Source: Eledone cirrhosa (taxonomy: Eukaryota). Taken from it: a stretch of 64,000 bases of DNA. Positions 56,418 to 56,925 of this stretch are shown here, piece by piece (the stretch's first letter is position 1; each line of letters starts with the position of its first letter). Under the pieces are notes generated by a model. The model saw only the letters and a list, made by a program, of their open reading frames with translations. It made no database searches and had not been told where the DNA came from. The position numbers were made by a program, and so were the translations under genes. The stretch is from NCBI GenBank assembly GCA_964016885.1, contig OZ024744.1:75578001-75642000 (forward strand), in the 5' to 3' direction.

Positions 56418-56584
56418 ATATATAAATAAATATATATATATATATTATATATATGTAAAAGTTCTATTTAAATTGTTGAGATACAACAAGCAAATACTTT
56501 TATAACTGATATAAAGCACTCAACAAATATTTGGAGTAAAAATACGATATTACCAAATGGAAACTATATTTATAAAACCATATT

Positions 56585-56649
56585 TATTTCATTATACATA
56601 TTTCAAGGACACCAAGTTAAATTATGGTGTGCTTTCATCAGATAAAATA
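56585..56649 (-). ncRNA. Type I hammerhead ribozyme (mirror copy)
   Basis: Exact reverse complement of 56787-56851; CTGATGA at 56641-56635. Confidence 0.85.
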
Positions 56650-56786
56650 TAATATAGATCAGTTTTATAAATAAATATTGGCATACCCTTAAAGAATGCA
56701 ACCATTACTATCCGGGAGCTTCCAACAGTAATGGTTGCATTCTTTAGGGGTATGTCAATATTTATTTATAAAACTGATCTATATTA

Positions 56787-56851
56787 TATTTTATCTGATG
56801 AAAGCACACCATAATTTAACTTGGTGTCCTTGAAATATGTATAATGAAATA
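56787..56851 (+). ncRNA. Type I hammerhead ribozyme, intact core
   Basis: 8-bp helix I tattttat/atgaaata; CTGATGA at 56795-56801; helix II aag.acacca/tggtgt.ctt; GAAA at 56832-56835; self-complementary helix III ATATGTAT; AUA triplet, predicted cut after 56843. Confidence 0.85.
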
Positions 56852-56891
56852 AATATGGTTTTATAAATATAGCTTCCATTTGTTAATATCG

Positions 56892-56925
<34 letters not shown>

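Follow-up and report, generated by a model that had tools for sequence, protein, structure and literature searches.

The palindromic locus at 56542-56894 of the 64-kb window (the whole stretch of DNA that was analysed) very probably consists of two short hammerhead-bearing repeat ends placed head-to-head within a TA microsatellite, and represents a likely 5'-truncated insertion of an endonuclease-bearing (EN+) Penelope-like element (PLE). Its mirror arm likely arose as the element inserted, and any read-through RNA is predicted to keep the ribozyme in an off state.

Anatomy of the locus

The window is AT-rich (GC 19-40% per 2 kb) and microsatellite-rich, with 297 TA runs in its 64 kb, and it looks like apparently non-coding animal genome. 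Self-comparison of the window gave two inverted arms of 168 bp each (56542-56709 and 56727-56894), which are 97.6% identical and separated by a spacer of 17 nt (56710-56726). The arms differ at exactly four paired positions (56553/56883, 56563/56873, 56681/56755 and 56689/56747), which confirms the 168-bp palindrome with four mismatches described in the original prediction. The unit had also been taken to be bounded by 56542-56894, and this does not stand, as the left copy continues for a further 80 nt to about 56462. The mirror symmetry ends at the end of the element, the flanks outside the arms are non-mirrored, and both 3' ends of the paired copies point outward onto (TA)n. Since the flanks are TA microsatellite on either side, a target-site duplication is unreadable at this locus. 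The features are as follows.

56416-56454, no strand: left TA-rich microsatellite, likely insertion target (sequence)
56462-56541, minus strand: 3' 'tail' of the repeat family, about 80 nt, left copy only (contig depth; no counterpart beyond the right arm)
56542-56709, minus strand: left arm, an inverted, 5'-truncated copy of the hammerhead-bearing 3' end, pLTR-like (self-comparison)
56585-56649, minus strand: type-I hammerhead motif, cut predicted after 56593 (motif search)
56707-56729, plus strand: junction, comprising the spacer 56710-56726 and a 3-nt complementary overlap, ACT at 56707-56709 and AGT at 56727-56729 (sequence, contig pieces)
56727-56894, plus strand: right arm, a 5'-truncated copy with the family's short 3' end abutting (TA)n (self-comparison, reads)
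56787-56851, plus strand: type-I hammerhead motif with an AUA site, cut predicted after 56843 (motif search)
56892-56919, no strand: right (TA)n microsatellite, likely insertion target (sequence)

The hammerhead motifs

The core CUGANGA / GAAA / UH with helices I and II is complete on both strands. On the plus strand, CUGAUGA lies at 56795-56801, GAAA at 56832-56835 and AUA at 56841-56843, and the minus-strand mirror runs from 56649 to 56585, so that the intact, mirrored core proposed for each strand is borne out at 56787-56851 and 56585-56649. Both motifs are directed away from the spacer, and the predicted cut site is 51 nt from the family's short 3' end. Helix I, proposed as 8 bp, has eight pairs including one G.U, and can be extended by seven pairs beyond a bulge (56779-56785 with 56852-56858). 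The nine standard pairs proposed for helix II are present, but they are interrupted by a C.C mismatch (56805/56828), and the helix opens with A10.1-U11.1 (A56802-U56831), not the usual G-C. An A-U at 10.1-11.1 is still a purine-pyrimidine pair and is tolerated in hammerheads. The G10.1-C11.1 pair that is absent here is highly conserved in PLE hammerheads (PMC4209133). Helix III is a short palindrome (56835-56842), self-complementary as had been claimed, with a weak duplex (-2.2 kcal/mol). Small palindromic helix III variants are known as a mark of dimer-type metazoan hammerheads, for which a tested monomer showed no cleavage and dimers low cleavage (PMC4209133), and the AUA site is found in natural active hammerheads, where it is slower after transcription (PMC1636495).

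A descriptor with at least seven pairs in each of helices I and II returned three motifs in the window, namely those of the two arms and one at 39070, and a motif of equal descriptor strength arose in none of 200 block-wise dinucleotide shuffles. Rfam gave no match of any kind in the window at the gathering score, and no hammerhead match at E up to 10. A weak Rfam match to mir-451 (E 2e-4, 30 bits against a cut-off of 66.5) merely reflects the hairpin. All four arm mismatches do fall outside the 65-nt ribozyme, as originally noted, but the selection that this seemed to imply does not follow: such placement has P=0.14 (P=0.07 counting the extended helix I), so it is chance and shows no selection.

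Predicted folding of the palindrome

The full strand folds into a rod of -251 kcal/mol (z -35.6), which in full read-through RNA is favoured over the ribozyme fold by about 92-95 kcal/mol, with a helix I probability of about 1e-58. The antisense arm is always transcribed first and would zip up with the emerging sense arm, so that no on state is predicted for read-through RNA; in these models, the rod is a permanent block on the ribozyme, not a switch. The original prediction is right that the rod would block the ribozyme, but its off switch is not supported.

When the RNA begins within the spacer, or as far as about 60 nt into the left arm, helix II has a probability of 0.88-0.98 and helix I one of about 0.5. 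Such an RNA would be without a tandem partner for helix III, the duplex of which is weak, and forming helix III as a monomer carries an extra cost of about 3 kcal/mol. Dimeric cleavage had been suggested for the locus; with one sense ribozyme per strand, a head-to-tail pair is absent, and hence no cis dimer can form here.

An abundant family with two 3' ends

Four of 10 listed public sequencing runs, with organisms coded A to D, were aligned to 56300-57300 at 82% likeness. Matching records amounted to 7,452 contig records in run X1 and 32,502 of 12.5 million reads in run X8, the latter being reduced-representation data in which read counts may reflect few loci, and organisms B and C also carry the family (63 and 23 records). 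A weaker repeat at about 57050-57300 also contributes to these totals; it is a further moderately repeated element (57048-57300) in X1, X8, X5 and X6.

Depth is concentrated on 56470-56877. Summed contig depth, which is not equivalent to copy number and is used qualitatively only, is in X1 0.72-0.81 million over the tail (56470-56537), about 1.3-2.0 million at 56538-56605 and about 0.2 million at 56674-56741, a drop towards the junction as 5' truncation predicts; one X6 piece begins at 56462. The family thus starts at about 56462 and not at 56542, with the 80-nt tail extending the left copy to the TA run, while the right copy runs straight into (TA)n and the tail is absent beyond the right arm. 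Both of these alternative 3' ends occur in X8, where 6,089 reads pass into TA repeats at the arm end and 9,685 continue into the tail.

Contig pieces cross from the right arm into the spacer, reaching 56719 in X1 and X5 and 56720 in X6, and their occurrence in three runs indicates that the spacer belongs to the plus copy. Cross-arm joints, each with a different centre, numbered 11 among the best 15 of 34 and 12 of 37 rows, every one of them being a single contig with 21-36 letters on the short side. Six of these 11 listed joints resume at 56707-56713, with differing letters upstream, and one X6 contig has 73 unplaced letters past 56720. Because a joint is listed only if both of its sides fall on the aligned stretch, longer copies escape notice, which biases the apparent 5' boundary; centre deletions in longer palindromes could also shift the centres. 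Of the four arm mismatches, three (56553, 56681 and 56747) are places where one arm alone deviates from the majority of the family, and such places occur on both arms.

A related subfamily carries a C-G to U-A exchange in helix II at 56807/56826; by calculation from the counts, no fewer than about 9,000 reads of X8 have both changes (register set by hand on the core as anchor; these reads may come from few loci). The same subfamily probably also has A-U to G-C at 56803/56830 (X1 and X6 contigs, without direct linkage), and its helix II is longer. The hammerhead is far beyond chance and covaries among relatives, and, judging by this helix II covariation, it is maintained at the family level.

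By the sequence records, the locus belongs to an abundant, interspersed multicopy family whose palindromes differ in their centres. The viroid analogy drawn in the original prediction is not supported; the view that the ribozyme pair arose by inverted duplication is. No head-to-tail tandem was found at the locus or among the joints listed, and the window holds no second direct copy. A metagenome pattern scan gave 13 loci, all of which lacked both GAAA after helix II and extended similarity and were dropped as chance; scans of viral contigs and of prokaryotic genomes gave no match. A literature search, with subscription journals outside its scope, returned nothing specific on this family in cephalopods, and published family lists in paper supplements could already contain it.

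Other palindromes and repeats in the window

Self-comparison of the window gave 13 local hairpins. In seven of them, one arm lies at or near (TA)n and the other is extended before the next (TA)n (3457-3581, 41037-41152, 55931-56070, 56247-56363, 56542-56894, 57313-57675 and 63135-63305); the remaining six are low-complexity, TA-centred or away from TA. In five of the seven (hairpins at 41037, 55931, 56247, 56542 and 63135), further copies show the extension as well. The build is thus routine in this genome. The tail, the (TA)n ends and the neighbouring insertions of the same build form a PLE context that the original prediction had missed. The 55931 family is present as single arms too, and single-arm copies of families with this build lie at 11632-11757, 26666-26774 and 7345-7442.

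Hairpins 41037-41152 and 63135-63305 belong to a single family; they share both the short end and the tail end and have centres of 2 and about 44 nt. Its regions extend over 41037-41237 and 63051-63305, and further pieces lie at 61191-61319 and 60773-60830. The motif scan found no hammerhead core in this family, which is possibly a hammerhead-less or more truncated PLE type.

The stretch 55931-57838 holds four palindromic insertions of different families within about 2 kb, with TA runs between them, and its microsatellite looks like a repeated landing site. One of these, 56247-56363 (in 56221-56418), is a head-to-head palindrome that is perfect at its centre, with a hammerhead-like core on the plus strand, a left arm without helix II and a 33-nt repeat of the tail region at 56386-56418. 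The palindrome at 57313-57675 has 160-bp arms (93% complementary) with GAAAC and a palindromic helix-III-like motif and no intact CUGANGA, and is possibly a decayed hammerhead family.

Elsewhere in the window, a second, unrelated type-I hammerhead motif (39063-39124, plus strand; helix I of seven pairs and a long helix II) is single and non-inverted between TA-rich stretches, with no further copy in the window; its longer helix III may permit it to work as a monomer. Two palindromes (39960-40140 and 38400-38591) are centred on a (TA)n run and not flanked by one, a build different from that of 56542-56894. A dispersed SINE-like family of about 200-250 nt, presumably resembling octopod SINEs, has at least 10 copies in the window (8880-9109, 17050-17277, 22485-22948, 26947-27137, 32897-33083, 49590-49816, 50290-50524, 51812-52031, 54562-54752 and 55335-55588). 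ARAGORN found no tRNA, and a sigma-70 promoter scan, a model unsuited to a eukaryote, remained at chance level.

Probable assignment to Penelope-like elements and proposed insertion mechanism

Retrozymes and PLEs were defined according to PMC7229834, 10.64898/2026.07.22.740005 and PMC8969392. The locus is likely a PLE insertion on five structural features: a type-I hammerhead near the 3' end (pLTR); an adjoining inverted 5'-truncated copy, head-to-head; an optional 3' tail confined to one copy (56462-56541, about 80 nt against the published 30-40); an interspersed multicopy family with variable 5' truncation; and an AT-rich or (TA)n target. PLE insertions are described with an inverted 5'-truncated copy, a one-sided tail and a (TA)n bias, and the origin of inverted PLE structures is called unresolved (PMC8557442). 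Among inverted pLTRs, head-to-head is the commonest arrangement, with an optional tail on one copy, and self-priming has been proposed for them (PMC3846280).

Coding evidence for a PLE was sought in the window. No RT or GIY-YIG Pfam match occurred among 60 of the 108 window frames of at least 90 aa, which gave three sub-threshold matches to other families; the 48 frames outside the Pfam scan looked on inspection like simple repeats or frames overlapping these. No RT/GIY-YIG ORF is linked to the hammerhead repeat family within the 64-kb window. The unit contains no ORF, and, in contrast to Pen2a or PAc, neither arm nor tail has an evident ORF start.

We propose that the GIY-YIG endonuclease of the element would nick both strands within (TA)n, and that each nick would prime reverse transcription on element RNA, one at an inner start site and one at an outer start site that includes the tail. 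The two cDNAs would end early and then be joined head-to-head via the 3-nt complementary overlap, and the ribozyme would be carried along because of its position close to the RNA 3' end. We infer the two-cDNA step purely from anatomy: one short arm and one tail arm are found consistently in 7/7 window hairpins of this kind, and the tail sits on the arm to which the spacer does not belong, which speaks against a single cDNA having simply been copied by fold-back, although self-priming with a template switch would still be compatible. In the PLE known as PAc, both target strands are extended, two RT start sites define the tail, and the ribozyme is protein-assisted and dispensable for insertion in vitro (PMC11167929). 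In the parent element of the present family, the ribozyme would likely cleave as a dimer or with protein help. Read-through of the locus would yield a dsRNA stem of 168 bp, on which small-RNA silencing or editing would likely act; siRNAs are reported to match inverted Penelope regions (PMC3681739).

A broader generalization can be put forward only tentatively, and we would sooner doubt it than assert it: head-to-head insertions might always pair a short-ended with a tail-ended arm, with each nicked strand priming a separate cDNA, the RT start sites of the two being different, and microhomology joining them; a short unit, non-autonomous and fixed at its 5' end, might do so at very many loci here. 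Within a search that had subscription journals outside its scope, nothing specific was found on a two-cDNA account of PLE inversions.

Alternative explanations

It is possible, if rather unlikely, that the element is the same and that its mirror arm came from fold-back self-priming of one cDNA (or from an antisense template) at the spacer, without a second cDNA. The near-identity of the arms would be expected from such copying, and the 3-nt junction overlap and a small spacer hairpin also fit the self-priming proposal of PMC3846280. This hairpin is weak, however (-1.2 kcal/mol as RNA), and the 80 nt of family sequence on the left arm have no counterpart on the right, so the left arm is not a plain copy of the right arm. 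With the left copy as template, the spacer would be predicted on the left, yet it belongs to the plus copy.

A second alternative, which we consider unlikely, concerns the nature of the unit: a short non-autonomous PLE-derived sequence, SINE-like or retrozyme-like and about 270 nt long, whose 5' end is fixed near 56707. It would be transcribed as a whole, be mobilised in trans and likewise gain its mirror arm at insertion. The clustering of six joints at 56707-56713 with differing letters upstream would suit such a unit, as would its want of an ORF, and both non-autonomous PLEs (PMC8557442) and PLE-derived retrozymes (10.64898/2026.07.22.740005) have been described. The clustering is nevertheless subject to the bias in the apparent 5' boundary, the X6 contig with unplaced letters extends beyond 56720, and head-to-tail tandems are absent from the locus and from the joints listed.

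The long inverted repeat with TA on either side would also suit a DNA transposon of the fold-back type, or a MITE, that had inserted in TA and in which the hammerhead is incidental, but this is very unlikely: a MITE has symmetric termini and a fixed interior, whereas here the 80-nt tail is on one side and the centres are variable, families of this build also exist as single arms, and the hammerhead exceeds chance and covaries. It is very unlikely indeed that the locus gives rise to a ribozyme-antisense switch under selection or to an ambisense, viroid-like rod RNA. Both cores are intact, the rod is very stable, and the AUA site occurs in active natural hammerheads (PMC1636495); against this, the penalty of 92-95 kcal/mol leaves no reachable on state, the single ribozyme of each strand has a helix III too weak for a monomer, the mismatches are placed as by chance, palindrome centres differ from copy to copy, and in a nearby palindrome, which belongs to another family, one arm has lost helix II. 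An assembly or library fold-back artefact is hardly credible, even though no read or contig spans the exact locus among the matches listed and the best run contains only 0.33 of sampled words, because the mirror stops at the natural 3' end of the element, the flanks differ, the arms carry separate substitutions, and similar junctions occur in independent contigs.

Implications

The PLE insertion proposed here is likely a dead retroelement stub, in an arrangement already in print (PMC4209133). It offers a caution that screens of animal DNA for 'a ribozyme on both strands of a rod' catch PLE debris. It also bears on the question left open in PMC8557442 of how PLEs make inverted insertions, as the tail on one side only may be a trace of priming on each of the two target strands, and the short-arm/tail-arm build would be directly countable genome-wide. 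If the dual-priming reading is true, such insertions would provide a natural dataset on how both strands are primed and would be an ample source of long dsRNA.

Comparison with known systems

Hammerhead viroids such as ELVd (PMC1636495) share with the locus a hammerhead in each polarity and, in ELVd (+), the AUA site. Viroid hammerheads differ between strands, have a helix III of 5-7 bp and can fold in both polarities of a replicating RNA, whereas the present motifs are exact mirror copies in a genomic repeat, where the ribozyme fold is 92-95 kcal/mol uphill. Non-LTR retrozymes (PMC7229834; 10.64898/2026.07.22.740005) are likewise short, non-coding and AT-rich, with a type-I hammerhead, and are probably PLE-derived. 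They consist of head-to-tail tandem hammerhead units giving circular RNAs, in contrast to the single inverted pair with one ribozyme per strand at this locus; tandems elsewhere in the genome are possible.

The hammerheads of metazoan PLEs (Cervera and De la Pena, 2014; PMC4209133) have in common with those described here the type-I topology, the long helix II and the short palindromic helix III, and opposite-strand pairs of minimal hammerheads 100-700 bp apart are reported in Schistosoma mansoni (PMC4209133). The present motifs differ in having A10.1-U11.1 with no extra nucleotide between 9 and 10.1, a helix II with the C.C mismatch, and a helix I of greater length (8+7 pairs). PAc, a Poseidon element of Anolis carolinensis (Frangieh et al., 2024; PMC11167929), shares the AT-rich target, and its two RT start sites and extension of both target strands fit the two 3' ends found here. 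The PAc ORF starts at stem II, and no such open frame is seen in our family.

The insertion may belong to the Neptune, Nematis, Hydra or another clade of PLEs. In comparison with the Pen families of Adineta vaga (PMC3846280; PMC8557442, Fig. 2), the copies here are only about 170-250 nt long, without an ORF, and the tail is about 80 nt and not 30-40. Nonetheless, the two share the head-to-head inverted 5'-truncated copy and the optional tail on one copy, as well as the palindrome at the junction, the hammerhead near the 3' end and the (TA)n bias.
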